Made by a program: the position numbers and the translations under genes. Shown here piece by piece: positions 583-37,293 of a stretch of DNA of 64,000 bases; positions within the stretch are counted from its first letter, which is position 1, and each line of letters starts with the position of its first letter. The DNA comes from a bacterium (lineage in GTDB: Bacteria > Patescibacteriota > Minisyncoccia > Moranbacterales > UBA2206), in contig JAJYGF010000013.1 of assembly GCA_021785125.1 (NCBI GenBank), forward strand, positions 41,413 through 105,412, read 5' to 3'. Under the pieces are notes generated by a model. The model was not told the DNA's origin. It saw only the letters and a program-made list of their open reading frames with translations, and did not search any database.

Positions 583-1229
583 AAGAATTCATAAGAAAAT
601 ACAAGTTGAATTTGTCGGTCTGCGCCTACCTGGTCGCGGTAGCTCTTGCTTTCTATTTCTTGTTCTTTCCGCTGGTGGACGGCATTCGAAGCAAGGCGGA
701 TGAAATCGAACGTAAGGAGATCGACGCCCAGATATATCAGGCGAAGCTCGACGGTATTCCGTCCATGGAGAAGAAATACGTTCTGGCCAAAGACGGGGAA
801 AGCAAGTTGGATGTGATCGTCCATGCCGACGGAGAAGTCGACATGATAAAAGAATTGGAAACGATGGCCGGGCAGACCGGCAATAAAATCCAATTTCAAG
901 TTCAGGACACCGCCGACGGCGCCGGAAAAAGCAAGCCGGCGGCCGGCAGCATAAAATCGAAGCTGTCGGACCAGAACTATCTTTCCATGCAGATCGCGCT
1001 GGAAGGAAGTTATGACGACCTGATATATTTTTTGCATAAGCTGGAGAATTACAAAGATTATATAAATGTCGTGAGCTTCAGCTCTGAAAAGATCCAGGCC
1101 GATAACGGCAGCGCCGCGCCGGCCGCCAACCAGCCGAATCCGTTTGCCGGTTCGCAGGCTAAAAGTTCCGCGCCAAGCCATGAAATATTGAATACGATAT
1201 TAGACGTCGTTGTTTATTTAAAAAAATGA
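564..1229 (+). CDS. Type IV pilus assembly protein PilO-like
   Basis: N-terminal TM, coiled-coil region then periplasmic domain; ~220 aa; position after PilN-like gene. Confidence 0.4.
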   Translation: MREKQMKEFIRKYKLNLSVCAYLVAVALAFYFLFFPLVDGIRSKADEIERKEIDAQIYQAKLDGIPSMEKKYVLAKDGESKLDVIVHADGEVDMIKELETMAGQTGNKIQFQVQDTADGAGKSKPAAGSIKSKLSDQNYLSMQIALEGSYDDLIYFLHKLENYKDYINVVSFSSEKIQADNGSAAPAANQPNPFAGSQAKSSAPSHEILNTILDVVVYLKK

Positions 1230-1552
1230 AGTTAGAATTTACAAACTTGCAAAACAAAATAAATTCCAAAGATCTCGTGGCCAAGTCGGCAAATTTTTTG
1301 AATCGGCGCGAAAAGGCCATTCTTATCGCGCTGTTTTTGGCCGCGTTGGCATATTGCGTTTATCTATGGTACGCCTATGCATACGATTTCAGCTGGGAAT
1401 CGGCCAAACGGCAGCAGTACATCGCCAGCCAGAACGATCAGACAAATCTTAACGAGGGTAAGCTTAACGGGGTTTTGGGAAATATTGATGCCCGTCAGAA
1501 AGAATTCGGCCAAGATATCAACGGGCCGGCGGATTTTTTCAGGTTGAAATAA
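1226..1552 (+). CDS. Small membrane protein, last gene of pilus assembly operon (PilP position)
   Basis: 4-nt overlap (ATGA) with upstream gene, N-terminal TM segment, followed by hairpin terminator. Confidence 0.35.
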   Translation: MKLEFTNLQNKINSKDLVAKSANFLNRREKAILIALFLAALAYCVYLWYAYAYDFSWESAKRQQYIASQNDQTNLNEGKLNGVLGNIDARQKEFGQDINGPADFFRLK

Positions 1553-1587
1553 AAACAACCCCGGCGCGGAGTTGTTTTTATTTTTTT
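1552..1587. terminator. Rho-independent terminator (AAAACAAC-loop-GTTGTTTT plus T-run), probably bidirectional
   Basis: Perfect 8-bp inverted repeat flanking GC-rich loop followed by T-run; sits between convergent pilus operon and tRNA array. Confidence 0.5.
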
Positions 1588-1588
1588 G

Positions 1589-1661
1589 TGCGCTGGGCAG
1601 GAATCGAACCTGCGACCAATAGCTTAGAAGGCTACTGCTCTATCCACTGAGCTACCAGCGC
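1589..1661 (-). tRNA. tRNA-Arg (anticodon UCU)
   Basis: Reverse complement folds as cloverleaf: acceptor GCGCTGG/CCAGCGC, D-arm GCTCAGTGGATAGAGC, anticodon loop CTTCTAA, T-arm GCAGGTTCGATTCCTGC; CCA not encoded. Confidence 0.85.
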
Positions 1662-1693
1662 TCAATTTTCGCATGCCAAGAAATCTGCAAGGG

Positions 1694-1765
1694 GGCGACT
1701 ACTGGGAATCGGACCCAGGTCCCAAGTGCCACAAACTCGTGTTCTGCCATTGAACTATAGTCGCC
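1694..1765 (-). tRNA. tRNA-His (anticodon GUG) with encoded G-1
   Basis: Acceptor GCGACTA/TAGTCGC, extra 5' G(-1) opposite discriminator C73 (bacterial His identity), anticodon loop TTGTGGC, T-loop TCCGATT; CCA not encoded. Confidence 0.8.
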
Positions 1766-1800
1766 ACTCTGAAGACTTCTTTTTTTGTTCGATCTTAGTG

Positions 1801-1873
1801 TGCATCCAGCTGGACTCGAACCAGCGACCGTTTGCTTAAGAGGCAACTGCTCTACCGACTGAGCTATGGATGC
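1801..1873 (-). tRNA. tRNA-Lys (anticodon CUU)
   Basis: Acceptor GCATCCA/TGGATGC, D-arm GCTCAGTCGGTAGAGC, anticodon loop CTCTTAA, T-arm GCTGGTTCGAGTCCAGC. Confidence 0.8.
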
Positions 1874-1886
1874 GTGATTTATTCGG

Positions 1887-1959
1887 TGCGCTCGGCAGGA
1901 ATCGAACCCACAACACCTTGGTCCGAAGCCAAGTGCTCTATCCGTTGAGCTACGAGCGC
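1887..1959 (-). tRNA. tRNA-Arg (anticodon UCG)
   Basis: Acceptor GCGCTCG/CGAGCGC, D-arm GCTCAACGGATAGAGC, anticodon stem CTTGG/CCAAG with loop CTTCGGA, T-loop TTCGATT. Confidence 0.75.
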
Positions 1960-2036
1960 CTGTCGGATCAAAGAAACCCGAGGACAATATGGCCATATTA
2001 ACAAAAAAAGCGCGGCTAGTCAATCAATGGAGGTTT

Positions 2037-3284
2037 TTAGCGGGATTTTTTCGATGAAGTTTGGTCGGGATGCGGATATTTGCTGGGAGAATCATAATTG
2101 CTGTTGAAGACATCCGCTCGGATAAGTTTGCCGTCGGTTCCGAACACCTGTTGCGTGAAGGTGGCCTTCATGGATCCGTCGGGATTTCTTTCCAGAATTT
2201 TGGGGCCGATCACGTTGACTTTCCTTCCGTCGTCGGTCCCGTAGAATTGAAAAATGAGTTGTGTGCCGGATATCTTCGTTTGGATGAGGATGTATCCCGG
2301 CGTGTCATTGATGAATCGCAGATCGGGCTGGGGGATATATACGGTAGCGTCCATGCCTTGCGGATCGTAGTAGCTGACCGGGTAAGCATGGTTTACTCGC
2401 TCGGTGATTTTCAGTCCGCTGTAGATGGCTGCTCGGAAAGCGGTGGTAGAAACCTGGCAGATCCCGCCTCCGAATTCCGGTTCGGTCTTGTTTTGTTTGA
2501 TTACCAGTTCCGGCAGATAGCCGTGTTCGGCATCCACCGGTCCTAATATTTTCACGAAAGAAAATTCTTCGCCGGGCTTGATGAGCACTCCGTTGAAACG
2601 TTCGGTAGCCACTTGAATATTGAAGACTCTGTTTCTCGGAGAGCCGCGAAAATCGGAATGTCCCTCTCCGATGAGCGAAGTGATGCCCAGGTTGTCGATG
2701 GAATCGGTCGAAATATCCGGATTTTTTTCGACATAAGGCAGAGAGACGGACGGATCCGGCTGTCTTTTGGACAGATAGTCAATCAGAACGGTGACGCTTT
2801 TTGTTTTGTCCAGCTTGATGCCTTTCTGGCTAAGCGAGAAAACAGAAGCCCGTCCGTCCGTTATTGTCAATTTCGCGTCCACCGGATCACGGTCCGCTTG
2901 CCTGGCGATGTCATCGACATATCGACTGACCGCATCTTTATCGACATACAGATGCGTGGCCAATTGAATGTGATTGTCATTTTTGTCACTGAAAGTCAAG
3001 GCGCATACGACAGATTTCTTGTATTTGCAAAAGTCGTCATTTTCTATTTCGGAACGGTAGCTTGGATTGTAATCGAGATCGCTTTTGGACGAGATCCATC
3101 CGGCAATCTCGGAGGCCGGAAGCACGGTTGAAAAGCCCCCGACATTTATGGTTAGGTCGCGCACGAATCCGGTCGGATCGTCGCCGGCAAAAGATCCCAA
3201 TGGAACGGTTTCGGCGCCAGCCGGTTTCATGCTCGGCAAGGCGATGACAAAAAGGAATAAAAAAAGTTTTATCATGTTTCGCAT
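2037..3284 (-). CDS. VanW-family protein (secreted/lipoprotein-like)
   Basis: Conserved VanW motif GGGICQVSTTAFRAAIYSGL; likely start at internal MIKLFLFLFVIALPS signal peptide (the longer ORF to 3338 adds a non-signal extension). Confidence 0.7.
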   Translation of the reverse strand: MRNMIKLFLFLFVIALPSMKPAGAETVPLGSFAGDDPTGFVRDLTINVGGFSTVLPASEIAGWISSKSDLDYNPSYRSEIENDDFCKYKKSVVCALTFSDKNDNHIQLATHLYVDKDAVSRYVDDIARQADRDPVDAKLTITDGRASVFSLSQKGIKLDKTKSVTVLIDYLSKRQPDPSVSLPYVEKNPDISTDSIDNLGITSLIGEGHSDFRGSPRNRVFNIQVATERFNGVLIKPGEEFSFVKILGPVDAEHGYLPELVIKQNKTEPEFGGGICQVSTTAFRAAIYSGLKITERVNHAYPVSYYDPQGMDATVYIPQPDLRFINDTPGYILIQTKISGTQLIFQFYGTDDGRKVNVIGPKILERNPDGSMKATFTQQVFGTDGKLIRADVFNSNYDSPSKYPHPDQTSSKKSR

Positions 3285-3991: not shown

Positions 3992-4558
3992 CTAGGCGCT
4001 GTTCGGCTTCAATCTGCGGCCCAAAAACACCAAGAAAAGATAAGTTATCCCCAGGAACGCATAGGTGAAAACGTACGGCTGTTCATAGATCACCATGAGA
4101 TTGTAGGAGAGGTGCCAAATGAAAGCGAAAGAAATGGTTGTTGCCGTGCGCGCGAAAGACCCGTTCCAGCCATGAATTATGGATATGCCGATGAACAAGG
4201 CAGTGGCGATATGCAGGAGTAAGGCGCCGATGATGCCCGGATCAGGATAAGCCGTACGATTGAGCGCGGCATTTGAAAAGGCGAAAAACAATTCGACGGA
4301 AGCAAAACCCAAGCCGGCGAACAAAGCGCCCGAGATTTTTTTTTGGATTTCGCCGGCATAAAATTTTTCGAGCATTATAAATTTCGCGCTTTCTTCCAGG
4401 AGTACGACCACGAGAAGGAAAAGGGTTATCCGATTGAAATAATTGACCTCAATGTCTTGTCCGGACAGAATGAAATAGAGATTGGATACCAGCATTTCAA
4501 AGATCAGCGCTCCGGAAGCGGCGATTATCCCGAATAAAAATGGTTTCAACTTATTCAT
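3992..4558 (-). CDS. Polytopic membrane protein, possibly PrsW/CPBP-like intramembrane protease
   Basis: Multiple TM helices; EESAKF and conserved His residues reminiscent of PrsW EExxK...H motifs; start overlaps tsaD stop by 4 nt. Confidence 0.35.
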   Translation of the reverse strand: MNKLKPFLFGIIAASGALIFEMLVSNLYFILSGQDIEVNYFNRITLFLLVVVLLEESAKFIMLEKFYAGEIQKKISGALFAGLGFASVELFFAFSNAALNRTAYPDPGIIGALLLHIATALFIGISIIHGWNGSFARTATTISFAFIWHLSYNLMVIYEQPYVFTYAFLGITYLFLVFLGRRLKPNSA

Positions 4559-5625
4559 CGGTCTGACATTTTCAAATTAGCGTCGGTCTTGGTGTTTTTC
4601 CAACCGTCCGACAATCCGCGGAGGCCGGTTTTTTGGCAGCGGAAGTACGCGGCCGCTGCGATCATGGCGGCATTGTCCAATTGGAAAGCCGGTTCCGGGC
4701 AAGAAAATAGCGTGTTCGGAAAATTGTGCTTTACGGCTTCTTGCAGCTGTTTCTGCAGTTCGAGATTGGCGCTGACGCCGCCGGCAACAAGAATGCTCCT
4801 TGGTCCGTATTTTTTGGCCGCCGCGATTGTTTTGGCGGTCAGCACATCGATGACAGCTTGCTGAAACTCGCGACTCATGGACGAAATAAAATCAGGATTT
4901 TTCTTGAAGTCTTCATTTTTTTTCGTAGCGTAGAGCGCCGCCGTCTTCAGGCCGGAAAAGGAAAAATTAAAATCTCCGGAATTTATCATTGGGCGAGGAA
5001 GGCTTATGTCGTAATCTCTGGCGAATTTTGACGGCTGTTTTTGTGCTTCCGATGCTATAGCCGGGCCGCCCGGATAGCCCAAATCCAAAATTCTGGCCAC
5101 TTTGTCGAAAGCTTCGCCGACCGCGTCATCTTGCGTTTCGCCGATAATTCTGTAGTCCAGATGGTCTTCCATAAGAATCAGCTGCGTGTGGCCGCCGGAA
5201 ACGACCAGTGTCAAAACGGGAAAAGGGATGTCCGTGTCACGCTTCCCGATAAAGTTGGCGTAGATGTGTCCTTCAATGTGATGAATGCCGATGAGGGGTT
5301 TTTTCCAGGCATAGGCCAACGTTTTGGCGGCGGCGGTGCCGACCAGCAGTGCCGGAATAAGGCCGGGTCCGGAAGTGACGGCAATAAGATCGATCTCGTT
5401 CTTTCCGATTCCGGCCGTATCCAAGGCGGATTCGATCACCGGCAGAATATTTTTCAGATGTTCCCGGGCCGCCAGATTGGGAACCACACCGCCCCAGCGG
5501 GCATGCAACTTGATTTGCGAAGAAACCATGTTGGACAGCGGCTTGGCGAAGCCGTCAGTCCGGCTTATTCGGATGACGGAAGCGGATGTTTCATCGCATG
5601 ATGTTTCGATGCCGAGAATAATCAT
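4555..5625 (-). CDS. tsaD: tRNA N6-adenosine threonylcarbamoyltransferase TsaD (Kae1/Gcp family)
   Basis: N-terminal MIILGIETSCDETSASV, HxxxH metal-binding (HHIEGH), ASKHA fold motifs throughout. Confidence 0.9.
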   Translation of the reverse strand: MIILGIETSCDETSASVIRISRTDGFAKPLSNMVSSQIKLHARWGGVVPNLAAREHLKNILPVIESALDTAGIGKNEIDLIAVTSGPGLIPALLVGTAAAKTLAYAWKKPLIGIHHIEGHIYANFIGKRDTDIPFPVLTLVVSGGHTQLILMEDHLDYRIIGETQDDAVGEAFDKVARILDLGYPGGPAIASEAQKQPSKFARDYDISLPRPMINSGDFNFSFSGLKTAALYATKKNEDFKKNPDFISSMSREFQQAVIDVLTAKTIAAAKKYGPRSILVAGGVSANLELQKQLQEAVKHNFPNTLFSCPEPAFQLDNAAMIAAAAYFRCQKTGLRGLSDGWKNTKTDANLKMSDR

Positions 5626-5755: not shown

Positions 5756-6397
5756 ATGTCTAGCGTCAAATTGTCGGATGTGAAGAGAAAAGCTGGTTTG
5801 ATCGTCAGGCCGGAGAGCGATGCAAATGACAATGAAGTGGTGAAATCCGTGCGAGACGGCGAGCGCGAACTGTACGCTGTAATCATTGAAAGATACCAAG
5901 GGAAATTGTTCGCCTATCTTTATCGTTTGGTCGGCGGGCGAGAAGAGGCTGAAGATCTTCTGCAGGACGTTTTCATCAAGGCGTTTAAAAATCTCAACAG
6001 CTATGATTCGAATCGTAAGTTTTCTTCCTGGATATATCGCATCGCTCACAATGAAGCGGTCAACTATATCAAGCGGAAATCTCTGAAAAAATTCATTTCA
6101 TGGGAAGATGTGACTTCGACCAAGGACAAATTGGCTGGCAATAGTACGGAAGAGAGCGTGGATAATATCTGGATGAAAAAAGAGGCGATCCGCGAAGTGA
6201 ACGAAGCAATCGACAAGCTGCCCATCAAGTACAAACAAGTCCTTCTCTTGAGATATTATTCGGAAAAATCTTATGAAGAGATCGGCGAGATTCTGCGCAA
6301 ACCGGTGAATACCGTGGGCACATTGATCAATCGCGCCAAGAAAAAGATGGCCGAAGAGATGGAGCGATTGGAAAATAACAAACTGAAAAAAAGTTAG
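5756..6397 (+). CDS. ECF-type RNA polymerase sigma-70 factor
   Basis: Sigma-70 region 2 (DLLQDVFIKAF...FSSWIYRIAHNEAVNYIKRK) and region 4 HTH (YEEIGEILRKPVNTVGTLINRAKKKM). Confidence 0.85.
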   Translation: MSSVKLSDVKRKAGLIVRPESDANDNEVVKSVRDGERELYAVIIERYQGKLFAYLYRLVGGREEAEDLLQDVFIKAFKNLNSYDSNRKFSSWIYRIAHNEAVNYIKRKSLKKFISWEDVTSTKDKLAGNSTEESVDNIWMKKEAIREVNEAIDKLPIKYKQVLLLRYYSEKSYEEIGEILRKPVNTVGTLINRAKKKMAEEMERLENNKLKKS

Positions 6398-6619
6398 ATG
6401 CGTAACAATGAAATAGAAAAGCGTTATGAAGGGGATGTCTGCGATGCGGTCATGCGCCGGATACGCGAAGAAAATATCAAGATACGTCCGCGTGGATTTT
6501 TTTTGGCAGAAGATCTGATCGCACGCGGCATGATGGTGTTCGGTATGTTTGCCGCAATTTTGCTCGTTTTGGATATTTTTGCGCGTATGTTCGGATATGT
6601 CCATGCCACGGGCTTTTGA
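6398..6619 (+). CDS. Small membrane protein, putative anti-sigma factor
   Basis: Start codon immediately follows sigma factor stop (translational coupling); C-terminal TM helix. Confidence 0.3.
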   Translation: MRNNEIEKRYEGDVCDAVMRRIREENIKIRPRGFFLAEDLIARGMMVFGMFAAILLVLDIFARMFGYVHATGF

Positions 6620-6933
6620 TGATAAAATTTCCGGAAGGCCTGTTCCTGTCATTTAAGAAATAAAAAGCCCGTCCGATTCAATATCGAGCGGGCCTTACTG
6701 TCCTTGCGAACTGTTCTTTTCTAATTCTTTTTCTTCGACCACCTCCTTCTTTTTTTACCCCGGCTATTTTTATTTTCAGCCAGGCGTTTCATGGTTCCAT
6801 AAATCACCTCATTGGTCATTTCGAAGGATATCCTTCCTTTGTTGAAAGCGTGACCCAACGCGATGGCGCAACCTCTGCAAGCCCGTAGTCCTTTCTTTTT
6901 GGTGCTGGCGTAGAGGTTTTTGTTTTCTTATTC

Positions 6934-7482
6934 TCAGATGGGGCAGGTACCGCCTTCTATGAGTACCTTGGCAACGCGCCGGTGGTTTGAACTTTTCATC
7001 GATATGGTGCGATACCTTTCTTTCATCGCTTTTTGCTTTTCTTCTTTTGCCACAATCCGCAAGGGTGTTTCCGGCGGATCTTCCATACAAACATGGGAAT
7101 AAGCGGACCGAATCAAATCGGAAGGTCTGGCTGGTTGGTAAGTGCTTCGCCCTTCTTGTTCGCTTGTGCGGACAATGAGAAAATCTTCTCGTGACATGCA
7201 CATACGATTTACGATTTTAACAAGGTTTGTTTTCGGCAGGCCGATGCAATCGGTCCAGTGGGGAAATCTGCGCCTGAAATATGAGTAAAGCTCATCGATG
7301 CTTTTCGGATAGTTGCTTATGAAGCGTTGGAGCGCTTTCATTCTTATATAACCGATATGCACGAAGTTCCATGCACCACCCAGTTCGCCGAGAACAGCCT
7401 CCTGTTCGTTGTTAAAGATCTTGATGGCGGAAAAATTTTCGTATCCCGTGTAATACTTTATCTTGCCGATCTCTGCCACCAT
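6934..7482 (-). CDS. Hypothetical protein, possibly 5' portion of a frame-disrupted gene
   Basis: AGGAGG RBS precedes internal ATG (MVAEIGK...); downstream, two further frames (6809..7201 and a 32-codon ORF ~6713..6811) continue without intergenic space, suggesting frameshift decay. Confidence 0.3.
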   Translation of the reverse strand: MVAEIGKIKYYTGYENFSAIKIFNNEQEAVLGELGGAWNFVHIGYIRMKALQRFISNYPKSIDELYSYFRRRFPHWTDCIGLPKTNLVKIVNRMCMSREDFLIVRTSEQEGRSTYQPARPSDLIRSAYSHVCMEDPPETPLRIVAKEEKQKAMKERYRTISMKSSNHRRVAKVLIEGGTCPI

Positions 7483-7635
7483 GACTGCCTCCTTTGGCAA
7501 AATGGGGTTCAAGAATTAATGTTTTCTTAATCTTAAGCTAACAGCAAAAGATCTGTCAAATAGATCATCAATCTTATTTTAATGGAAATATCCAACTAAC
7601 AAGTGTTTCTAAGGTATAAAAACAAAGCTTGTCGT

Positions 7636-7734: not shown

Positions 7735-8769
7735 TTACTGCTTAATATTAATGCCAGTATCAGCAATAGTATTCAAAATATCGTTTGAATTGATAACAAA
7801 TCCAATGAACCTTTCGAATCCTACTCCAAATCCACCACGCACTAAATCGCCCTCTTCTTTAAACAAATTAAAGTACTCTTCAAATGGCATTATTGGGTCC
7901 TGATTCTTATCAGCGATAAATTTTCCTATTTTTGAATTCAAAAGATATTTTTTGATTTTATCGCCATCTTCTTCGCGTACTGCGCCACCAACCGTTTCGC
8001 CTAGAGGAGGGAGAAGCAAATCGAAACTAAATGTTTTTTGACCATCCTTTGTGCGTTTCATATTAAAAAATTTCAGCTTTGTTGGGTGATATGTTATAAA
8101 TGTTGGCACATTATTAAATGACTGCAGAATAAATCTTTCTTCCCTAATTCCCATGTCGTCACCGAATTTATAATGATTCAGATACTTTTTATTAAGTATG
8201 TCTATGGCTTGGTCATATGTAATAATGTTGAAAGGAATATGCGTGATTTTCTGCAAATAATCAACATCTCCTCCAAGTAAACTAAGTTCCCTTCGATTTT
8301 TTAATAATAATTCATCCGTAACTGTTTTAATTATTTGTTCTGCCTGCTTTATGATATTATTCAAAACTCTTTCAGGTTTTTGATTGCCATAAGGTCGTTC
8401 CGGTTCAATAAGGGTAAACTCAGAAAGTCTTCGATTTTTTGATTCTGGATCGTCGTAATTTTCTTCTCTAAAGCTATTATTGACAGTATAAAATCCTTTT
8501 CTTAGGCGCAGGACCAGCGCCTCAAGTTGTAGTTGGGCGCTTTGTGACAAATGGGCCTCACGGCCATAATAGTTCAACTTGAACGAGGCGTGAGGATTTT
8601 CGCAAGAGCCTGCAATATTTACTAGTGATGCCGTTGCAACCTCGTTGTATCCCAGCTTGCACAGTTCCTCGCGAAACGCAAGAAGTGCATTCGTTCTTAT
8701 GGAAGTCAGGGCGGCAAATCTGTCTTTGCTGAAAGTTCCCAGCCTTGTGGTAAAATTATCCTTTTGCAT
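7735..8769 (-). CDS. AsnRS/AspRS-like class II catalytic-core paralog lacking anticodon-binding domain (AsnA-like aspartate-ammonia ligase type)
   Basis: Class II motif 2-like FREENYDD...EFTLIEPE and motif 3 GGFGVGFERFIGFV; parallels aspS in this window (FITYHPTKLKFFNMKR vs FLTHYPSAIRPFYSMP) but starts directly in the catalytic domain. Confidence 0.65.
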   Translation of the reverse strand: MQKDNFTTRLGTFSKDRFAALTSIRTNALLAFREELCKLGYNEVATASLVNIAGSCENPHASFKLNYYGREAHLSQSAQLQLEALVLRLRKGFYTVNNSFREENYDDPESKNRRLSEFTLIEPERPYGNQKPERVLNNIIKQAEQIIKTVTDELLLKNRRELSLLGGDVDYLQKITHIPFNIITYDQAIDILNKKYLNHYKFGDDMGIREERFILQSFNNVPTFITYHPTKLKFFNMKRTKDGQKTFSFDLLLPPLGETVGGAVREEDGDKIKKYLLNSKIGKFIADKNQDPIMPFEEYFNLFKEEGDLVRGGFGVGFERFIGFVINSNDILNTIADTGINIKQ

Positions 8770-8937
8770 AATGTTTAAATGAAATTATTTCTTAATAGGG
8801 TAATTATCGAGTCTTAATGTCAAATTAGTCAACACTAATTTTAATTATTTATATTAAATAAGCCAAAATATGCTAATATATAATAAATTGGCGTCAAAAA
8901 TATTGACATTTATTATTTAAAATGCTAACGTTTATCC

Positions 8938-9687
8938 ATGGATATCAAAGCGACTTTACAAAAAATAGGCTTGAGTAAAAAAGAGGCAGATATATATTTG
9001 ACCTGTCTTGAATATGGCCCCACGACCATTACAAATATTGCCAGATTGTCCGGCTATAAACGGCCGACACTTTACAATTTAATGGAAGGATTACTGCAAA
9101 AAGGATTTGTAATTATAGTTAGAAGAAATAGTAAAACATACTATGATGTCGAGAAGCCAAAGCGCTTGCTTACTGTTTTACATGCCAGGGAAAAGGAGTT
9201 AGAGCAAGCGTTGCCAGAGCTGGAAATAATTAAAAATCGCAAACAGCCGCTACCGGAAGTAGAGATATACGATGCTGATGAGGCAATAAAAAATTTATAC
9301 GATGATATTTATAACCAATTAAACAGTCGTACTGAAACTTGTTTTCTTACTTCAATTTCTGATCTAAAAACGTATGCCCCGCATATCCTAGAGTCATATA
9401 TGTCGAAAATTAAAAATAAAAATTATATTATAAGGGAATTAATCTTTGATGATGAACAGGGTTGCAAATATGCCAAGGAAATGAAGGCATTAAATATTAA
9501 ACATGAAATAAGATTATTGCCGAACGATTTTCCAATATACAATGATATTGCTTTATATAATGGGAAGGTTTCAATTTTTTCTTTTAAAATACGCAGTTCA
9601 GCAACTATGATCGATAATTTGGAAATTGCCGCAACACTTAAAAGTCTGTTTGAATGGGCTTGGGTTAATGGAAAAAACATAAAATAA
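8938..9687 (+). CDS. TrmB-family transcriptional regulator
   Basis: N-terminal wHTH LSKKEADIYLTCLEYGPTTITNIARLSGYKRPTLYNLMEGLLQKGFV typical of TrmB; divergent to AsnA-like gene. Confidence 0.65.
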   Translation: MDIKATLQKIGLSKKEADIYLTCLEYGPTTITNIARLSGYKRPTLYNLMEGLLQKGFVIIVRRNSKTYYDVEKPKRLLTVLHAREKELEQALPELEIIKNRKQPLPEVEIYDADEAIKNLYDDIYNQLNSRTETCFLTSISDLKTYAPHILESYMSKIKNKNYIIRELIFDDEQGCKYAKEMKALNIKHEIRLLPNDFPIYNDIALYNGKVSIFSFKIRSSATMIDNLEIAATLKSLFEWAWVNGKNIK

Positions 9688-11243: not shown

Positions 11244-11353
11244 CAAAGAAGTGATGAAACGGGTCTTTTCCTGCGACGAATAATAATGAGTAAGAATTGA
11301 GATATTGGCTTTAGATAAGACAGAATGCGGTCTGAAGAGTCTTATCTCGTTTG

Positions 11354-11429
11354 TACCGCCAAGGGGATTCGAACCCCTGATTTCCAGGATGAAAACCTGG
11401 CGTCCTGGACCGGGCTAGACGATGGCGGC
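11354..11429 (-). tRNA. tRNA-Glu (anticodon UUC)
   Basis: GCCGCCATCGTCTAG... anticodon stem CCAGG/CCTGG loop TTTTCAT, T-arm CAGGGGTTCGAATCCCCT; strong resemblance to bacterial tRNA-Glu; CCA not encoded. Confidence 0.8.
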
Positions 11430-11563: not shown

Positions 11564-12811
11564 TTAATTTGTTAAACCCCGGTTAATTTTTTTGAATAAT
11601 TCGTCTTTGGCTTGCATCATCTTTTTTCCAAAATCATTATCGCTTTCCGCATAAGCGATTTTATCCAAATCTTCAAAAGTTATTCCCGCTTTCAAATATT
11701 GAGAGGCCTGATCCAGCGACTTGAATTTTTCGTATGGAGTGAGAGTGATGTTGTATTTCTTTCGTATTTTTCCTTTTGCATCAATTCTTTCTTCAGCGAA
11801 CAAGCAGGGCCGGTGATAGTTGAGGTAAACGTTTACGTACGCGCGGTTGAACTCTTCGATCAATGACGCAAACTTTTGATCGATGAAATTTCTGCCGTAC
11901 AATTTTCTCACGATGCTGCCATTCTTTGATTCCACCAGAGCATTGTCATTGGTATGCCTGGCCCGGGATTTGCTTTGTTCGATTAAAAGTTCGGTCAGAA
12001 GCTCGGCCACAATCCTGTTGAGATATTCACTGCCGTTGTCGGAATGAAATTCGTAAACCTTGAAAGGAAACAATCCTAACAATTCTTTAAGCACCGGCTT
12101 CAAAAAATGATGGCTTATGCCCTCGACTGTGGCTATCATCTCATACTGCGTAACTTCGTCAACGAGATTGATATGGTAAACACCCTTCACTTTGTCTAAA
12201 TCACCCTGATGTACGCTGTCTACGCGCAAATAGCCGGGCTTGCCGTAAGGATTGGGCTTTCTCCTGATTCCGATATTTACATTTGTAGTCGGCGTATGCT
12301 TAAAAAACAGAGCCGGAGAACTTTTGTACTGTCGATTGTGATTGCGGAGATTGTACAGATGGGAGATTGAAATCCTGGCAATATTTGCGTATTCTTTTTT
12401 GCCAAAAATTTCTGATTCGCGGCGCAGGATTTCCTTGGTGGCTTTGCCGTTCAAGCATTGGTGGGTGATATCCGTATCAATCAGCCGCTCTATGTCAGTC
12501 GCGAAATATTTTACCGGAAATTTGTTTCGTTTTCTTCCCGGATTCCAGAAAAGAAGTCCTTTGCGCCAACGGTTAACCAATTTTTTGGTGTGTCCTCGGG
12601 AATAGCCGGTTAAAAATTTCAGATACCGGATGACAATTGCTTTTTCTTTTTTTCTAAGCTTAGCATACCCGGTCTTAATCAATACGGTTTTCAAAAACTC
12701 ATATTTTTCCGGATCGCTCCCGATCTCCATTTGGATGAAGTCGTTGGACTTCAAAAACTCCTCCATCTGGCCTATACTGCCAGTAGGCAAGTTATTCATA
12801 TTGATGTTCAT
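11564..12811 (-). mobile_element. DDE transposase, integrase-core (rve) type, IS481-like
   Basis: N-terminal HTH region, then catalytic core YHINLVDEVTQY...HSDNGSEY...NALVESKNGSIVRK (D,D,E triad context). Confidence 0.75.
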
Positions 12812-12990: not shown

Positions 12991-14286
12991 ATGGACAAGA
13001 ATATATATTTGCATGAGAATTCTTCAATAATAGCCTTAGATCCAAATGAAGCTAGTTTTGAAGTCGTAGAAAGAAAATTCCGTGGTCATCCTGACTCAAT
13101 GGCCGATATGGTGGCACAGTCATTTACACAGAAATATATCAAGAGTGCGTGGGAAAAAATACCTGAACTTTCCAATATTTATTTTCCAAATTTTTCTTCA
13201 GACAAAGTAGTTTTATCTGGTGCAAGTACAAGGTGTGTAAATGGAAAATGCGAAATTATTAAGCCGGTAGATGCTTTGCTCATAGGCAAAATAACAGAGA
13301 AAATTGGAAATATAGAAATAGATATAGATGCAATTTTTAAAGATTCCGTTGAAACTGTATTAAGCAGATGTCTAGGACACAATGATTTCAAGCCATATGT
13401 AAATAGAAAGACATATTCAATATCATTCGCAGGAGCTGACCATGATAAGGGATTTTACAATCCAAGTTCAGTAGCTGATTTGTTGAAAATACTTAAAAAT
13501 GAGACACATGCAAATGATACGGTTTATGTTGTAGCGTATTCACCATTAAGTGTATCAGAAAAGCTTGTAATCTATCTGGATAATCTTACGGCATCAAAAG
13601 AATTCAAAAAGTTATTTCCAGAGATTGGTTCGGATATTAAAGCGATGGTTCGCAGAAGATCATCGGATTTCGAAATCACAATGTGTTTACCGGTTTTTCC
13701 AGAAAAAATTCAAGATAATCAGCTATATAATCGTATCATTAAAGAAGCTACAAAATATATCCATAAAGAAATTATCCTCTTTCTTGAAAAAAACACTCGA
13801 TATTTCAAAAAACCAACAATAAAACTGTGGACTAATACTAAGGATACAAAGGATAAAAAATATTATGCAATTTGGGGTACCGCTCTTTCAAAAGGTGACG
13901 TTGGGGCGGTTGGACGTGGAAATCGGCAACAAGGATTTATAAGTGGCGTGCGGCCAAGCACGAATGAGGCTATGTCGGGAAAAAATCCAAATCATTTTGC
14001 GGGAATTGTGTATCAGCTTGTTGCAGAAAATATCTCAAAATTGATTTTTGACGAACTTGGGCAAAAAAACGCCATATACATTACTGCGAACAATGGAGAT
14101 TTTTTAGAACATCCGAATTCTATAGATGTAATCCTAGAAAAAAATAGCTTATATCAAAAAGAAGCAATTTCTAAAATCGTAAAAAAATCATTAAAGTTGA
14201 TCCCTGAGTTCCGCATGAATTTCATAAATTCTGATCCATACGAGAGATTCATGAGTTCCAATATGCTTTCACGTAAGGTTAAATGA
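12991..14286 (+). CDS. Archaeal-type S-adenosylmethionine synthetase (MAT) homolog
   Basis: VERKFRGHPDSMADMVAQ, HANDTVYVVAYSPLSVSEKLV, GDVGAVGRGNR...GVRPSTNEAMSGKNPNHFAGIVYQ all parallel archaeal MAT (MJ1208-type) motifs. Confidence 0.8.
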   Translation: MDKNIYLHENSSIIALDPNEASFEVVERKFRGHPDSMADMVAQSFTQKYIKSAWEKIPELSNIYFPNFSSDKVVLSGASTRCVNGKCEIIKPVDALLIGKITEKIGNIEIDIDAIFKDSVETVLSRCLGHNDFKPYVNRKTYSISFAGADHDKGFYNPSSVADLLKILKNETHANDTVYVVAYSPLSVSEKLVIYLDNLTASKEFKKLFPEIGSDIKAMVRRRSSDFEITMCLPVFPEKIQDNQLYNRIIKEATKYIHKEIILFLEKNTRYFKKPTIKLWTNTKDTKDKKYYAIWGTALSKGDVGAVGRGNRQQGFISGVRPSTNEAMSGKNPNHFAGIVYQLVAENISKLIFDELGQKNAIYITANNGDFLEHPNSIDVILEKNSLYQKEAISKIVKKSLKLIPEFRMNFINSDPYERFMSSNMLSRKVK

Positions 14287-14430
14287 TTCGATGAGGTTAA
14301 TAGTTATAGCGAAAAGAATCGATTAGATTTTTTTCGCTGCAACTATACTATTTTGATAGTTGGAGTTGATCATTGACAATTTAAAAATAAGACAGTAAAC
14401 AACAAACAACAAAGAAAGGAGTTGAGAGGC

Positions 14431-15900
14431 ATGGCTTACAGAGATGCAGACAAGGTGATATCTAGAATTGGTATAACACCAGTAGGAAGTGCGAAGTATC
14501 GCGTCAATAGATTGCGGTTTCATCTTTTAGCCTATGCAATAACAAGAAAGTTCCAGTTGGCTGGAAAAGAAGCCGCATTTTTTATAAGATGCGATGACAC
14601 TGACAGTAGTAATGTAAATCTTGCATTTCTAGATTCGTATCTGGAAGTGCTGTTCTCATTGGGAGTTGTGCCGAATTTAACCCCCTATGACAAAGATAGT
14701 GGGGGCTTCTCCCTTTTCCAGTCCAAAAGAGGCGATCTTTATAAGATGTTTATAGACCGTCTTTTGGAATCCGGCTTGGCATTTAAGGATTCTACCGGGG
14801 CAATCTTTTTTCACACAGAAGAGTTTTCGAGGAGATTTCAGGGTTTATTAACAGATAATAAACTTGAAGTTGAGGATGCTTCAATCGGAAGCTTCGCTGT
14901 TGATATCCGAACTCCGCTGAAAGAAAAAAGCGGTAAAATTGGGCTGATTTCATTTCCCTTAGTGCGAGCAAATGGAACATATCTCTTCAGTCTGTGTTCG
15001 CCAGTGGACGATGGGGTGATGGGAATTACACATGTTGTAAGGGACCGGGATAAACTCGATTTACTTTCGAGACAGGAAATGGTTAGGATTTCACTGGGAT
15101 TTCCGTCCATAACATATGTCCATGTTCCGTTGCTTGTTAACCAAGACGGCAAGAGATTTGTTTGTGATGAGTACTGGGGAGATGCTACATTTCAGGATTT
15201 TGTAGCCAAAGGAATATTTCCCAAGGCGTTAGTGTCGTATCTTCTTTCTGGATTCTTTGGTCCGTCAGAGAAGTATTACTCATCAATTGAAGATTTTGCT
15301 TCCCAAATAAATCTTGGGCGACTTCATCAGTCCAATACAGTCTTTGATGAGTCGGTTCTTAAGCAACACAACAAAAAAGCATTGGAAGGTTCTTCGGTGC
15401 TGGAGTACGAAACAGCACTAAAAAACTTCCTTGCTGGCGATAACCCAGTGGCCCTTGATTGTCTTAAATCAGATTCAGATATGCTGGAAATGATGATAAG
15501 AATGAAGAGGGGGCTATCAGAAACAGGCGACATTATCCATAGCTTGTCTCAATTTCTGCACGACGATCCGGACATCAAGCACATAAGAATACTAAATACG
15601 ATTATCACCTTCTTTTTACAGAAAGAGAGTGGGATGCGGGATCATTCTTGTGCAAATTTCATGCTTGAAATGGCTACGGAGCATGCGAAAAACCTTGGTA
15701 CTTCCAGAAAGGAATATTATAAGGCGTTAAGATATATTCTTACTGGCAAATACCAAGGGTGTGATTTGCATGAGGTAGTGGGGTATCTGGAAAAGAAGGG
15801 AGTTGTGATGGCGAGGATAAAAGCTACAAGAAACGAGCTGATAAAACGCAATCTCCTAATGGAATCTAGGAGTCACACTTTAAGCAGGAGGTTAGAATGA
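14431..15900 (+). CDS. Glutamyl-tRNA synthetase paralog with degenerate HIGH and KMSKS motifs
   Basis: Collinear with GluRS: RIGITPVG|SAKYR (PSPTG|xxHIG position), FFIRCDDTDSSN (RIEDTDxxR), ITHVVRDRD (THVIRGEDH), LVSYLLSGFFG (LxNYLxxLGWS); KMSKS position reads GKRFV; AAAGGAG RBS 9 nt before ATG at 14431. Confidence 0.7.
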   Translation: MAYRDADKVISRIGITPVGSAKYRVNRLRFHLLAYAITRKFQLAGKEAAFFIRCDDTDSSNVNLAFLDSYLEVLFSLGVVPNLTPYDKDSGGFSLFQSKRGDLYKMFIDRLLESGLAFKDSTGAIFFHTEEFSRRFQGLLTDNKLEVEDASIGSFAVDIRTPLKEKSGKIGLISFPLVRANGTYLFSLCSPVDDGVMGITHVVRDRDKLDLLSRQEMVRISLGFPSITYVHVPLLVNQDGKRFVCDEYWGDATFQDFVAKGIFPKALVSYLLSGFFGPSEKYYSSIEDFASQINLGRLHQSNTVFDESVLKQHNKKALEGSSVLEYETALKNFLAGDNPVALDCLKSDSDMLEMMIRMKRGLSETGDIIHSLSQFLHDDPDIKHIRILNTIITFFLQKESGMRDHSCANFMLEMATEHAKNLGTSRKEYYKALRYILTGKYQGCDLHEVVGYLEKKGVVMARIKATRNELIKRNLLMESRSHTLSRRLE

Positions 15901-16787
15901 AAACCGTGTTAAAGGTTGGTAGGTATAACGTGATGCTTGTAGTTGCAGATAGTCTCAGATATGATCTGGCTCAAAAGGCTAAGACTCCATTTCTGAACAA
16001 GCTCTCGGCACTAAGATTGGCAGAGGCACCTGCGACATACACACTGCCATCACACATGTCTTTCTTTGTTGGCATTCTCCCTGTATTGATTGATGGTAAT
16101 CCCGAATTTTTGCCGGGAATTCGTCAGCTCTGGAGGTCTGTTAATGCCAGGGAAAGCGATAAATCGTCCGCCGTTATTTTTCAGGGAGAAACAATTATCG
16201 ACTACTACGTAAGGAATCAATATGAAGTGCTTGGTGCGGGGGGCGTGTCCTTTTTCAGTGGGGCCAAAGATAATATTTTGCCCAAGCTTTTTCCAAAGTT
16301 TCTTCACTTTGAAAAGCCGGCAAACTTACCAAGGGATGCCAACGTGCCTCGCAACATGAGACAATTTCCACTGGCAAACATCGGAAGACTTATGGATAAT
16401 CTGAATTTTTCAAATCCATTTTTCCTTTTTATTAATTGTCCTGAAACACATATGCCCTATGATTCTCCCGGCGTTGAAATTACGGAGAGTTATAAAATGG
16501 CGATAAAAAAACTTTACGCCATTGACAATGTCAAACATTGTCCGGTAAGGGATCAGGATAAGTTGACGGAAGAGGAGAGGCGGATACTAATGGATGCCCA
16601 GAGACAATCGCTCGAGTGGATAGATCGGATGACTGAGGATCTGCATAGCAGAATACACAACGGACTACCTACGCTCGTGGTTGTCATGGGAGATCATGGT
16701 GATGAATTCGGAGAAGGAGGAAGGTATGGCCATGCTCATTACCATTCTTCAGTAATGCATGTCCCACTTTGGTGTGGTATGCTATGA
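15897..16787 (+). CDS. Alkaline-phosphatase superfamily enzyme, type I phosphodiesterase/nucleotide pyrophosphatase-like
   Basis: VVADSLRYD metal-site Asp, Thr nucleophile context ATYTLPSHMSFF, distal MGDHGDEFGEGGRYGHAHYH metal ligands; 4-nt overlap with upstream gene, GGAGG RBS. Confidence 0.65.
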   Translation: MKTVLKVGRYNVMLVVADSLRYDLAQKAKTPFLNKLSALRLAEAPATYTLPSHMSFFVGILPVLIDGNPEFLPGIRQLWRSVNARESDKSSAVIFQGETIIDYYVRNQYEVLGAGGVSFFSGAKDNILPKLFPKFLHFEKPANLPRDANVPRNMRQFPLANIGRLMDNLNFSNPFFLFINCPETHMPYDSPGVEITESYKMAIKKLYAIDNVKHCPVRDQDKLTEEERRILMDAQRQSLEWIDRMTEDLHSRIHNGLPTLVVVMGDHGDEFGEGGRYGHAHYHSSVMHVPLWCGML

Positions 16788-16800
16788 TAAGGAGTAAGAA

Positions 16801-17416
16801 TATGTTCAACGGAAATATGTATAAAAAGGTCATACTCAACGGTGGTTACCCGGATAGGGCCCCAGATGGCGGACTTGCTTTCTGTAGGGAAGTAACAGGT
16901 GGACTGAGTCAGCCGGTGAAAATTTTGGAATGCCTTTTTGGGCGGGAAAAGAATACTTGGGATTCAGCTCTTAAAAAAGATGTTGAGCTGTTTCACAATG
17001 TATTGGCAGGTGTTCAGGTTGAATTTCAGATAGCCAAAGAAAGAACGCTTGTTGACCAGATTGGATGGGCAGATGTAGTTTACTTTCGTGGAGGTTACAC
17101 CCAAAGACTTTATGATGTTCTTAGTGTCATTCCTCAATGGCAGGATGCGTTAAAGAATAAAGTTGTTGTCGGGTCTTCTGCCGGTGCGTATATACTTTCA
17201 GAAGTATATGTTCATGCTGCAGAAAAGCCTGAGGCAAGAAAGGGATTTGGCCTGGTCCAAATTAAAACAGTTGCCCATTATCGTTCGACATTTTTCCATA
17301 ATGGAGATCACGATAAGGCACGACAATATTGGGACATGGTTGATGAACTTCTTGAAAATTTAGGCCCTCACTTGGAAATGATGAAGCTGGGAGAGGGCGA
17401 ATTCAGAGTTCTGTAA
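16801..17416 (+). CDS. S51-family peptidase (PepE alpha-aspartyl dipeptidase / cyanophycinase-like)
   Basis: Nucleophile elbow VVVGSSAGAY (GxSAG), upstream GGYTQRL; AAGGAG RBS 6 nt before ATG at 16801. Confidence 0.6.
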
Positions 17417-25139: not shown

Positions 25140-25256
25140 AATTTCACCTCCAGTTTGAAAGAACACGACTTTTAATCATACTATATATTTTATGATTTGT
25201 CAAACAAATTATTATATAATATACTTTCACAAAGAGATTAATCAAATCAATTATTT

Positions 25257-31856: not shown

Positions 31857-31923
31857 CAGAAGGTTTTGACAAGCTGAGAGGGCGCTCCGGTATTCTTATT
31901 TTTTTAAAATAGATAAGTTATAA

Positions 31924-32595: not shown

Positions 32596-32706
32596 GCTCT
32601 TGAACTCACCTGCTAAACACTTGACTAGGTTTTATAGATGTGATTAAATAGGATGTGCTGTTGTCATTTTCGAGAATCTTGAAAACTTAACAAAGGAGGC
32701 TGGGCA

Positions 32707-35973: not shown

Positions 35974-37293
35974 ATGGAAAGAACATTGATCAGCGAGACT
36001 CCGCAATCGGTCGGACAAATAGTGAAGCTCAAAGGATGGGTGAATATCCGCCGCGACCATGGCAAGCTCATCTTCATCGATCTTCGCGACCGGTCGGGCA
36101 TGATCCAGATGGTCATCATTCCGGACAAGGAGGAGGCATATAAAGTTGCCAAAGACGTGCGCAACGAATTTGTGATTGAAGTGGAGGGATTGGTGAAGCA
36201 AAGGCCCGGAGGCGCGACCAAAGAGGGATCGGCGACCGGCGGAGTGGAGATTGAAGTCGAAAAGATGGCAGTCATATCACAGCCGGAGGATGTATTACCT
36301 TTGGACGTTTCTGAAAATGATATGAATGTTAATCTTGATACATTATTAAATCTTCGCCATCTGACTTTACGAAATAAAAAAATCAAATCTATTTTCAAAG
36401 TCTATGCGGAAGTTATAAATGCTTATGCAAAGATAATGAATCGTGAGGAATTTACGGAAATAAAAACTCCTAAAATCTTAAATTCAGCAACTGAAGGGGG
36501 CGCCAATTTTTTCAAGATAAAATATTTCGAGAAAGAGGCGTTTCTGGCGCAGAGCCCGCAATTCTACAAGCAGGCGGGAGCCGGTATATTCGAGCGTGTT
36601 TTTGAGATTGGTACGGTTTTCCGAGCAGAACCGCATTTTACTACGAGGCATGTCAATGAATATACAAGTTTGGATGCGGAGATGGCTTTCATCGACGGGT
36701 TTGAGGATGTGATGGATGAGCTAGAAAAAGTTATGAAATTTATGATGGAGTCAGTTAATGAACATTGCCGGGAAGAATTGGCGATGTTTGGCGCGGAAAT
36801 CCTGCCGGTCAAATCCATCCCGCGCATAAAATTGACCGAAGCGTTGAGCATTCTGGAAAAGGAATATGGCAAGAAGATGGAAGAGGTCGACATCGATGCG
36901 GAAGGCGAGCGCATGATATGTGAATGGGCCAGAAAGAATTATGATTCGGATTTCGTCTTTCTGACGCATTATCCATCCGCCATCCGGCCGTTCTATTCCA
37001 TGCCGAGCGCCGATCCGCAATATACGGAAACCTTCGACCTTCTTTTCATGGGCGTGGAAATTGCTAGCGGCGGGCAAAGAATACATGATTACAATCAATT
37101 GATTTCTAGTATAAAGAAACATAAGCTGAATCCGGATGATTTTGAGCATTATCTGGATATTTTCAAATACGGCATGCCGCCGCATGGAGGCTGGGGACTC
37201 GGTTCAGAAAGGATCGTCCAGAAGATTCTTGGATTGGGCAGTATCAAGGAAGCTATCCTTTTCCCAAGAGACGTGAAAAGATTGACCCCGTAG
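35974..37293 (+). CDS. aspS: Aspartyl-tRNA synthetase, archaeal/type-2 (possibly non-discriminating)
   Basis: N-terminal OB fold, class II motifs 1-3 (FRAEPHFTTRH..., GGQRIHD, GMPPHGGWGLGSERIV). Confidence 0.85.
   Translation: MERTLISETPQSVGQIVKLKGWVNIRRDHGKLIFIDLRDRSGMIQMVIIPDKEEAYKVAKDVRNEFVIEVEGLVKQRPGGATKEGSATGGVEIEVEKMAVISQPEDVLPLDVSENDMNVNLDTLLNLRHLTLRNKKIKSIFKVYAEVINAYAKIMNREEFTEIKTPKILNSATEGGANFFKIKYFEKEAFLAQSPQFYKQAGAGIFERVFEIGTVFRAEPHFTTRHVNEYTSLDAEMAFIDGFEDVMDELEKVMKFMMESVNEHCREELAMFGAEILPVKSIPRIKLTEALSILEKEYGKKMEEVDIDAEGERMICEWARKNYDSDFVFLTHYPSAIRPFYSMPSADPQYTETFDLLFMGVEIASGGQRIHDYNQLISSIKKHKLNPDDFEHYLDIFKYGMPPHGGWGLGSERIVQKILGLGSIKEAILFPRDVKRLTP

Follow-up and report, generated by a model that had tools for sequence, protein, structure and literature searches.

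Truncated paralogs of the aminoacyl-tRNA synthetases (aaRS), such as AsnA, AS-AR, EpmA, HisZ, GluQRS and the amino acid:carrier protein ligases, have repeatedly been the source of new biochemistry. The gene considered here is of this kind: it is derived from asparaginyl-tRNA synthetase (AsnRS), is paired with a divergent regulator of the TrmB family, and lies in a stretch of 64,000 nucleotides (the window; contig JAJYGF010000013.1, positions 41,413 to 105,412, assembly GCA_021785125.1) from a bacterium of the Moranbacterales, Patescibacteriota. The AS-AR of Pyrococcus abyssi (PDB 3p8t / 1nnh) is likewise a class IIb core of similar size without an anticodon-binding domain, and it is the known example of such a core that functions as an asparagine synthetase dependent on ammonia. 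The AsnA of Escherichia coli (PF03590; PDB 11as/12as) is also a class II-like core and acts on aspartate or asparagine, and EpmA/GenX/PoxA shares with the new family a class IIb core minus the anticodon-binding domain and, as is presumed for the family, an acceptor other than tRNA. That two class IIb cores, AsnA and AS-AR, are asparagine synthetases is discussed in a 2022 review of aaRS-like proteins, which under asparagine has the AspRS-like AS-A alone (PMC9437257), and two further papers describe AsnA as often the sole enzyme of amino acid synthesis kept by genome-reduced organisms (PMC11606122; PMC12174568). Full-text searches of a literature library turned up no description of a core-only family derived from AsnRS. 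The gene in the window probably encodes a regulated, tRNA-independent small-molecule ligase, be it an asparagine synthetase or an enzyme with another acceptor; the version tentatively preferred, at a probability of roughly 0.4, is that of a laterally acquired cassette in which an asparagine-synthetase-A-like enzyme, with ammonia as acceptor, would be under divergent TrmB control.

The cassette consists of two intact open reading frames (ORFs) and the spacer between them:

7735..8769, minus strand: AsnRS-derived catalytic-core-only protein, 344 aa, with class II motifs 2 and 3, an AsnRS-type amino acid pocket and a 9-aa acidic motif-2 loop, lacking the OB (oligonucleotide-binding) anticodon-binding domain and the C-terminal FPR
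8770..8937, no strand: divergent control region, 168 bp, 20% GC, with promoter-like sites for both genes, aligned with four other loci (alignment A2)
8938..9687, plus strand: TrmB-family winged-helix regulator, 249 aa, with a Pfam TrmB match and a C-terminal part of ~120 aa without a recognised ligand domain

An initial annotation of the window had described the first gene as a class IIb aaRS-like gene that lacks the anticodon-binding domain, and the second as its own divergent TrmB-family regulator, both within a low-GC island, and these three points were borne out, with the two ORFs at precisely the positions given. The cassette has a GC content of 33–37% (20% in the spacer) against ~47% in the flanks, i.e., it sits in compositionally foreign DNA, and the AsnRS-like gene is lower in GC than its own flanks in 17 of 20 loci. 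The gene was counted as intact because all ~100 positions that are invariant in its family are present in the window protein.

The assignment to the class IIb catalytic cores was based on the sole Pfam match of the 344-aa protein, tRNA-synt_2 (PF00152; 117 bits against a gathering cutoff of 25, residues 9–336), together with the motif 2 (FREE) and the motif 3 (GFGVGFER), which are invariant in the family. A full-length AsnRS it is not: the NCBIfam asnS models (NF003037 / TIGR00457) scored it at 165 and 160 bits, far short of their cutoffs of 414 and 343, and the alignment was limited to positions 127–440 of 451, which means that the N-terminal OB anticodon-binding domain is missing; only ~15 residues stand ahead of the catalytic core. 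The nearest solved structure by sequence is the AsnRS of Pyrococcus horikoshii (PDB 1x54, E 8e-36), and in fold, too, the protein is nearest to AsnRS. When a family profile built from 28 members (alignment A1) was searched against the PDB sequences, AsnRS was matched at E 8e-43 and aspartyl-tRNA synthetase (AspRS) at ~1e-24 to 1e-13, while the archaeal AS-AR reached only E 0.16 (3p8t) and 0.05 (1nnh), with an alignment restricted to motif 3, and E. coli AsnA and EpmA/GenX were absent at E <= 1. The best score with the archaeal AsnA models in NCBIfam (PRK06462) was 66.8 bits (cutoff 368), less than the 122 bits that the ordinary AspRS of the window obtained with the same model; Pfam PF03590 (AsnA) did not match the protein. 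These searches rule out a known AsnA of either type, so that the AsnA identity offered by the initial annotation does not hold, and its alternative, a ligase of the amino acid:carrier protein type, fared no better: neither a class IIa SerRS-like core nor an adjacent carrier-protein gene, as expected of such ligases (e.g., Bll0957), was found. Orthology to a housekeeping AsnA was not seen either, and the gene thus remains an uncharacterised paralog. Given the low AS-AR and AsnA scores as against the strong AsnRS scores, the protein is, as judged by sequence comparison, an AsnRS-derived lineage that belongs to neither known AsnA family. It has no curated model of its own and is sharply defined by its sequence signatures.

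These signatures were mapped by following which residues of AsnRS were kept and which were lost. The residues that serve ATP and the amino acid are invariant in the family, namely R101 and E103 of motif 2 (FREE), R320 of motif 3 (GFGxGFER), E57 of the flipping loop and the SQSxQ at 75–79, and the residues that discriminate AsnRS from AspRS are also retained, i.e., L82 (Lys in AspRS), E122 (Asp in AspRS) and the arginine R265 of GGxxRE. Relative to the archaeal/eukaryal AsnRS (P. horikoshii, 1x54), the family differs, besides the missing N-terminal OB domain, in several active-site motifs: AFYM is changed to FFNM and CEG to CEN, which is common to most core-only clades, whereas the replacement of the His before motif 3 by Arg (R-G-G for PH-G-G) and the loss of the motif-1 Pro and of the C-terminal FPR, which is replaced by ...SNDILxTIA..., are confined to the family and its closest sisters. 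The motif-2 loop is changed as well. In full-length AsnRS this loop has the form xSxTx, is 5 aa long, has a mean net charge of +1.0 (39 full-length class IIb sequences) and is acidic in 5%; in the family it reads N[YF]DDP[ED]xxG, is 9 aa long and therefore 4 residues longer, has a mean net charge of −2.65 and is acidic in 100%, and the loop of the other core-only clades is xxVDD-like in most cases, with a net charge of −0.75 (core-only versus full-length, Mann-Whitney p = 1e-9). The net charge of the whole core, used as a proxy for tRNA binding, did not discriminate (−9 versus −7), only that of the motif-2 loop did. In the complex of yeast AspRS with its tRNA, contacts to the discriminator base and to the first base pair are made by the Ser and the Thr of the xSxTx loop; an acidic insertion in their place, as read from the alignment, argues against binding of a tRNA acceptor.

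The family itself is tight and scattered. In a large protein database 251 relatives were found at E <= 1e-5, of which the best 120 are nearly all of 333–369 aa and 54–69% identical, with source names such as Peregrinibacteria, Uhrbacteria, Micrarchaeota, Aenigmarchaeota, Pacearchaeota and Woesearchaeota. At 46–69% identity the family is spread over bacteria of the Candidate Phyla Radiation (CPR), DPANN archaea and a few other phyla, and over its bacterial and archaeal members the mean column identity is 63%, with the ~100 invariant positions already mentioned (alignment A1). An exhaustive search, which was run on 50%-identity representatives, resolved the homologs into three layers: the tight family (44–53% identity), a cloud of core-only proteins of 300–360 aa (30–40%) and, interleaved with these, full-length AsnRS of 430–470 aa. 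None of 10 core-only proteins sampled reached any curated cutoff, and a rough neighbour-joining tree placed the core-only proteins in one large clade separate from the full-length AsnRS. A pattern scan with one genome per species found carriers in at least 30 of 185,579 species genomes, a lower bound, since the scan depends on invariant peptides; the carriers are CPR bacteria, DPANN archaea, isolated Alphaproteobacteria, Rhizomicrobium, Gemmataceae (Planctomycetota), Phycisphaerae and Melioribacteraceae (Ignavibacteriota). No relative was found among the viral contigs of IMG/VR, and with weak PHROG matches only, a phage-borne gene was rejected. Rarity, patchy spread, the lack of viral carriers and low GC together mark the gene, as far as genome comparison can tell, as a rare accessory gene that spreads by lateral transfer, across domain boundaries too, and is strongly constrained by purifying selection.

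Public annotation pipelines label members of the family 'asparaginyl-tRNA synthetase', a routine mis-annotation in CPR and DPANN genomes, and one of consequence for metabolic reconstructions in which aaRS are counted or asparagine auxotrophy is inferred for these ultra-small symbionts. An 84-kb contig (L060) is instructive in this regard: it carries a canonical full-length AsnRS at 1024–2304(+) (495 bits, cutoff 414), 3.7 kb from the core-only gene at 6001–7038(+), so that in that genome, at least, the family gene is no stand-in for a missing AsnRS. The idea that the gene replaces a missing AsnRS was dropped on this account and in view of the rarity of the family. Further out in the core-only cloud, one clade with ~32% identity to the window protein has fusions (P0168, P0151) of the core to MGS-like, dihydroorotate-dehydrogenase and PRTase-CE domains, and in Psychrobacillus (L043, 9001–10101; P0147) it belongs to an operon that also comprises a sugar epimerase, a DegT aminotransferase, a NUDIX protein, an ATP-grasp protein, a dihydroorotase (DHOase)-like amidohydrolase and a PEP-utilizer, next to a phage integrase. 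For that neighbouring clade, small-molecule chemistry of an aspartate- or pyrimidine-like kind is thereby suggested.

The second gene of the cassette belongs to the TrmB family. Its 249-aa product was matched by Pfam TrmB (PF01978; 54.4 bits, cutoff 25.6) over residues 7–69, which establishes the winged helix-turn-helix (HTH), and PDB 3qph matched residues 3–130 only. With the Pyrococcus regulators TrmB, TrmBL1 and TrmBL2 it shares the N-terminal winged helix and the dimerisation helix (residues 7–134 of 3qph) and a palindromic putative operator, but, unlike Pyrococcus TrmB, it has no recognisable sugar-binding effector domain: the equivalog models for TrmB and TrmBL1 scored it at 38 and 30 bits, where 650 and 600 are required, and aligned only the first ~75–97 residues, so it cannot be called an ortholog of the sugar sensors. 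Homologs of the regulator occupy the same divergent position at 52–57% identity in L001, L005/L072 and L018 (loci are numbered with an L), and more distant ones in L006/L049, L046, L065 and L088. When the intergenic regions of five of the TrmB-bearing loci were aligned (alignment A2), two conserved blocks stood out from otherwise AT-rich and poorly conserved sequence. Together with the best promoter matches, they place the following elements in the control region of the window:

8893..8907, no strand: inverted repeat GTCAA-N5-TTGAC (GTCAAAAATATTGAC), putative TrmB auto-operator, with half-sites invariant in the five aligned intergenic regions
8888–8893 / 8911–8916, plus strand: putative trmB promoter, TTGGCG / TATTAT, by consensus matching only
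8818..8835, minus strand: two direct TTGAC half-sites 9 bp apart (GTGTTGACTAATTTGACA), putative second operator with a function suggested by the conserved block 'TGTTGACAAAATTGACAT' in alignment A2
8832–8827 / 8808–8803, minus strand: putative sigma-70-like promoter of the AsnRS-like gene, TTGACT / GATAAT, a 10/12 match to the consensus, by consensus matching only

The first block, TGTCAA-N5-TTGAC as aligned, thus lies between the −35 and the −10 of the best trmB promoter match, and the half-site pair of the second coincides in part with the −35 of the promoter best matched for the AsnRS-like gene. The inverted repeat at 8893–8907 has no other exact match in the window. Its half-sites, GTCAA/TTGAC, are different from those of the TrmB operator, TATCAC-N5-GTGATA. 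A consensus derived from the sites, TGTCAAYWTTTYNGWC, was found exclusively in TrmB-bearing loci, always in the same relative position, plus once at a paralog in L018, where the extra site (4359–4374) lies upstream of a second TrmB gene (4469–5215) that is divergent to an unrelated operon with an MTS-type methyltransferase. The motif therefore tracks the regulator and most likely serves this TrmB subfamily as its operator. By the same token, reading the L018 paralog as a regulator of its neighbours, the subfamily is one that also controls other genes. No leader RNA or T-box was detected by Rfam upstream of the AsnRS-like gene, tRNAs being the only RNAs found in the window.

In order to see what else accompanies the gene, 71 independent loci (window included) were pooled from exact-protein look-ups, a genome scan and a metagenome scan, of which 56 have at least 900 nt of upstream and 52 at least 500 nt of downstream sequence. 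Of the 56, 23 have a divergent regulator no more than 700 nt upstream: in 8 loci, the window included, it is of the TrmB type and the pair recurs with its conserved operator, and in 15 (16 with one that overlaps the gene start) it is a tandem Lrp/AsnC-type regulator; the TrmB type goes with CPR carriers and the Lrp/AsnC type with archaeal ones. TrmB homologs within 2 kb were found in three further loci, and small XRE-type or HTH-CBS regulators in a few others. The divergent asnC–asnA pair of E. coli, the paradigm of asparagine synthetase control, has the same layout as the Lrp/AsnC regulator beside the enzyme in the 15–16 archaeal loci.

Downstream the picture is more varied. In nine loci of the CPR type (L013, L015, L024, L046, L047, L049, L050, L052, L065) the family gene is overlapped, or followed within 35 nt, by a small thioredoxin-like gene, which may be operonic with it. 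In six others (L020, L053, L064, L079, L081, e.g., 1479–2153, and L082) a GTP-cyclohydrolase-II-like gene follows 0–36 nt downstream on the same strand; its product scores 72 bits in Pfam and 75 bits with the NCBIfam RibA model against a cutoff of 148, and most of these loci also bear the Lrp/AsnC regulator. The most divergent subgroup (40–58% identity; Gemmataceae, Melioribacteraceae, Phycisphaerae and soil contigs; L036, L038, L042, L055, L080, L083, L090) has a conserved cluster in the order metallophosphoesterase, amino-acid permease, uncharacterised protein of 255–355 aa, membrane protein, AsnRS-like gene. Some members lie in variable regions with toxin- or defence-type genes (L008, 1021–16691; L006, 13718–17044), which include an SpvB/RHS toxin, nSTAND and NACHT NTPases, AIPR and a Shedu SduA_C domain. 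Since some relatives are near AIPR, Shedu or NACHT genes, a component of a known defence system was considered, yet PADLOC matched neither protein to such a system, with marginal hits at the HTH level only (CasR, E 8e-6, for the winged HTH; Cas10a, E 0.004).

From these elements a course of events can be proposed. The ancestor would have been an AsnRS of the archaeal/eukaryal type, which then lost its anticodon-binding domain and the loop that reads the acceptor stem. The present enzyme is predicted to bind ATP and a small polar L-amino acid of the size of Asn or Asp, to form an acyl-adenylate, and to hand the acyl group to a small nucleophile rather than to tRNA. The simplest such acceptor would be ammonia, which would make this the third independently derived AsnA-like enzyme, and its product, free asparagine, would be supplied in organisms that are almost without amino acid biosynthesis. 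The TrmB-family regulator would bind the GTCAA/TTGAC half-sites that overlap both promoters and so set expression, be it up or down, and in the archaeal carriers an Lrp/AsnC-type regulator would take its place. Independence of tRNA is favored because of the core-only architecture, the lack of an anticodon-binding domain nearby, the acidic motif-2 loop and the lost FPR, and a ligase is favored because the neighbouring core-only clades show small-molecule biosynthetic contexts or fusions. Within this reading, asparagine synthesis is preferred because the two other class IIb cores, AsnA and AS-AR, are asparagine synthetases, because Lrp/AsnC regulators were recruited in a divergent layout like that of E. 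coli asnC–asnA, because the canonical AsnRS near the family gene in L060 consumes free asparagine, because an amino-acid permease lies in the operon of the most divergent subgroup, and because genome-reduced organisms tend to retain an AsnA-type enzyme. If this is true, the class IIb scaffold would have given rise to the activity for a third independent time, and a rare biosynthetic capacity would be traded laterally between domains.

Several observations weigh against an asparagine synthetase under TrmB control. Sequence similarity to AsnA and AS-AR is negligible (E 0.05–0.16 or none), and the pocket, as read from its residues, looks like that of AsnRS, which activates the alpha-carboxyl group, and not like the rearranged pockets of AsnA and AS-AR, which activate the beta-carboxyl group of Asp. 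The family-specific invariant residues N58, N236 and R311 find no explanation in such a role, and it predicts neither the thioredoxin-like gene directly downstream in nine loci nor the divergent GTP-cyclohydrolase-II-like gene downstream in six. On the side of the regulator, sugars are the usual effectors of TrmB proteins, and the L018 paralog shows that the subfamily is not exclusive to the AsnRS-like gene. The tree of the core-only proteins is, as said, a rough one.

Because of this AsnRS-type pocket, the residues N58, N236 and R311 and the thioredoxin-like and GTP-cyclohydrolase-II-like partners, a small-molecule acceptor other than ammonia is nearly as likely as ammonia itself. On analogy with MshC, the amino acid:carrier protein ligases and natural-product aaRS-like enzymes, the protein could possibly be a tRNA-independent amino acid ligase that transfers the activated amino acid to a metabolite, a cofactor, a thiol or a carrier, with an aminoacylated or amide-linked product. 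The retained pocket would then still activate the alpha-carboxyl group, and the three extra invariant polar residues could build the acceptor site. The operon partners would fit as well, i.e., the thioredoxin in nine loci, the GTP_cyclohydro2-like protein in six, and the permease, the metallophosphoesterase and two uncharacterised proteins in 5–7, as would the neighbouring core-only clades, with their fusions to MGS, DHO_dh and PRTase domains or, in Psychrobacillus, their operon of sugar-aminotransferase, ATP-grasp and DHOase-like genes. The points that speak for ammonia, above all the precedents of AsnA and AS-AR and the asnC–asnA-like layout, stand on the other side. In a wider form of the same thought, which is attractive but doubtful, the family is an uncharted, cross-domain mobile one inside a larger superclade of AsnRS-like enzymes without anticodon-binding domains, held together by common derived traits (FFNM and CEN in the active site, acidic motif-2 loops), and what it makes would be a conjugate not described before, aminoacyl or amide in kind, or else a metabolite or signal derived from the adenylate; CPR and DPANN symbionts would produce it when needed, with a ligand-sensing regulator in control. 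Were this so, the partners of the thioredoxin and GTP-cyclohydrolase-II-like kinds would hint that the chemistry is linked to redox reactions or to nucleotides; and if the enzyme is not an asparagine synthetase, its acceptor amounts to new chemistry in any case. The cassette of regulator, operator and enzyme is compact and directly testable in vitro.

An enzyme that still works as an AsnRS, either by minimal charging of the acceptor stem or with an anticodon-binding domain encoded elsewhere, for instance as a back-up or inhibitor-resistant AsnRS, is improbable. AsnRS is by far the closest relative, all of the adenylation residues are kept together with the discriminators L82 and E122, and the label given by the public pipelines points the same way. 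However, a free-standing anticodon-binding domain was looked for with tblastn and a hidden Markov model of 39 N-terminal domains, and none was found in the window besides that of the canonical AspRS, nor within +/-10 kb in 42 loci, so that a split AsnRS with a separate domain was set aside. The xSxTx loop is swapped for a longer, acidic one, the C-terminal FPR is gone, and L060 has its canonical AsnRS on the same contig. The family is also too rare and patchy for a translation enzyme, and it is an accessory gene under a dedicated regulator of the ligand type, which is atypical for aaRS genes.

Aminoacylation of a protein, in the manner in which the LysRS paralog EpmA/GenX/PoxA acts on EF-P, is less probable still. 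EpmA shares the truncated class IIb architecture, but it derives from LysRS and not from AsnRS, and the family, which is also archaeal, occurs in two domains without a common target of that kind. The protein had no NCBIfam match to the EpmA/GenX models (TIGR00462/NF006828) at E <= 0.01 and, as seen above, none to the structures; neither efp, epmB nor another conserved gene for a protein substrate was found among the conserved neighbours, and the acidic loop and the pairing with a regulator are unlike EpmA. The joint Asp/Asn/Glu-based chemistry with the operon at 12991..17416 that the initial annotation had proposed is contradicted by co-occurrence and very improbable: the two units are only ~3.3–4.2 kb apart and both in the generally low-GC DNA of the window, but between them lie DUF5674, a small ORF, a tRNA-Glu(UUC) and an IS481/rve-type transposase, an insertion sequence at which other assemblies break; in none of the other 70 loci, with 642 kb of flanking sequence searched (at least 5 kb in 47 loci), did a homolog of any of the four operon genes turn up; and the nearest relative of full length, 69% identical and on a contig of 1.05 Mb, has its 249-aa TrmB partner and none of the operon genes.

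The operon itself is present a few kb from the cassette as annotated, and encodes on the plus strand, at 12991–17416, an archaeal-type methionine adenosyltransferase (MAT; 252 bits, cutoff 481), a GluRS-like protein (131 bits, cutoff 290, with weaker matches to GluQRS models), an STM4013-like sulfatase-family hydrolase and an S51 peptidase. All four are paralogs that score below threshold, and at other loci none of them accompanies the AsnRS-like family. The tRNA-Glu(UUC) at 11353–11429(-) adjoins the transposase at 11564–12811(-), directly upstream of this operon with its GluRS-like paralog, and the break of other assemblies of the window organism at the transposase indicates a repeat. The gene at 35974..37293, annotated as the canonical aspS, was confirmed as an archaeal-type AspRS (546 bits, cutoff 353).

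On the other side of the cassette, directly downstream of the AsnRS-like gene, lies a gene at 6721–7512(-) whose protein had no family match. Its product is 192 aa in the window and 259 aa in another assembly from the same population (L010, 4155–4934); the shortening is due to stops from TGC->TGA and GAA->TAA, by substitutions at 6934 and 6930, five bases apart, which cut off a zinc-ribbon-like tail of the form CxxC...CxxC. Other low-GC patches of the window, at 25001–26000 (30% GC) and 30001–33000 (34–36% GC), may be additional islands; one of them contains the start of a histidine-kinase gene, another ABC-transporter and radical-SAM genes.

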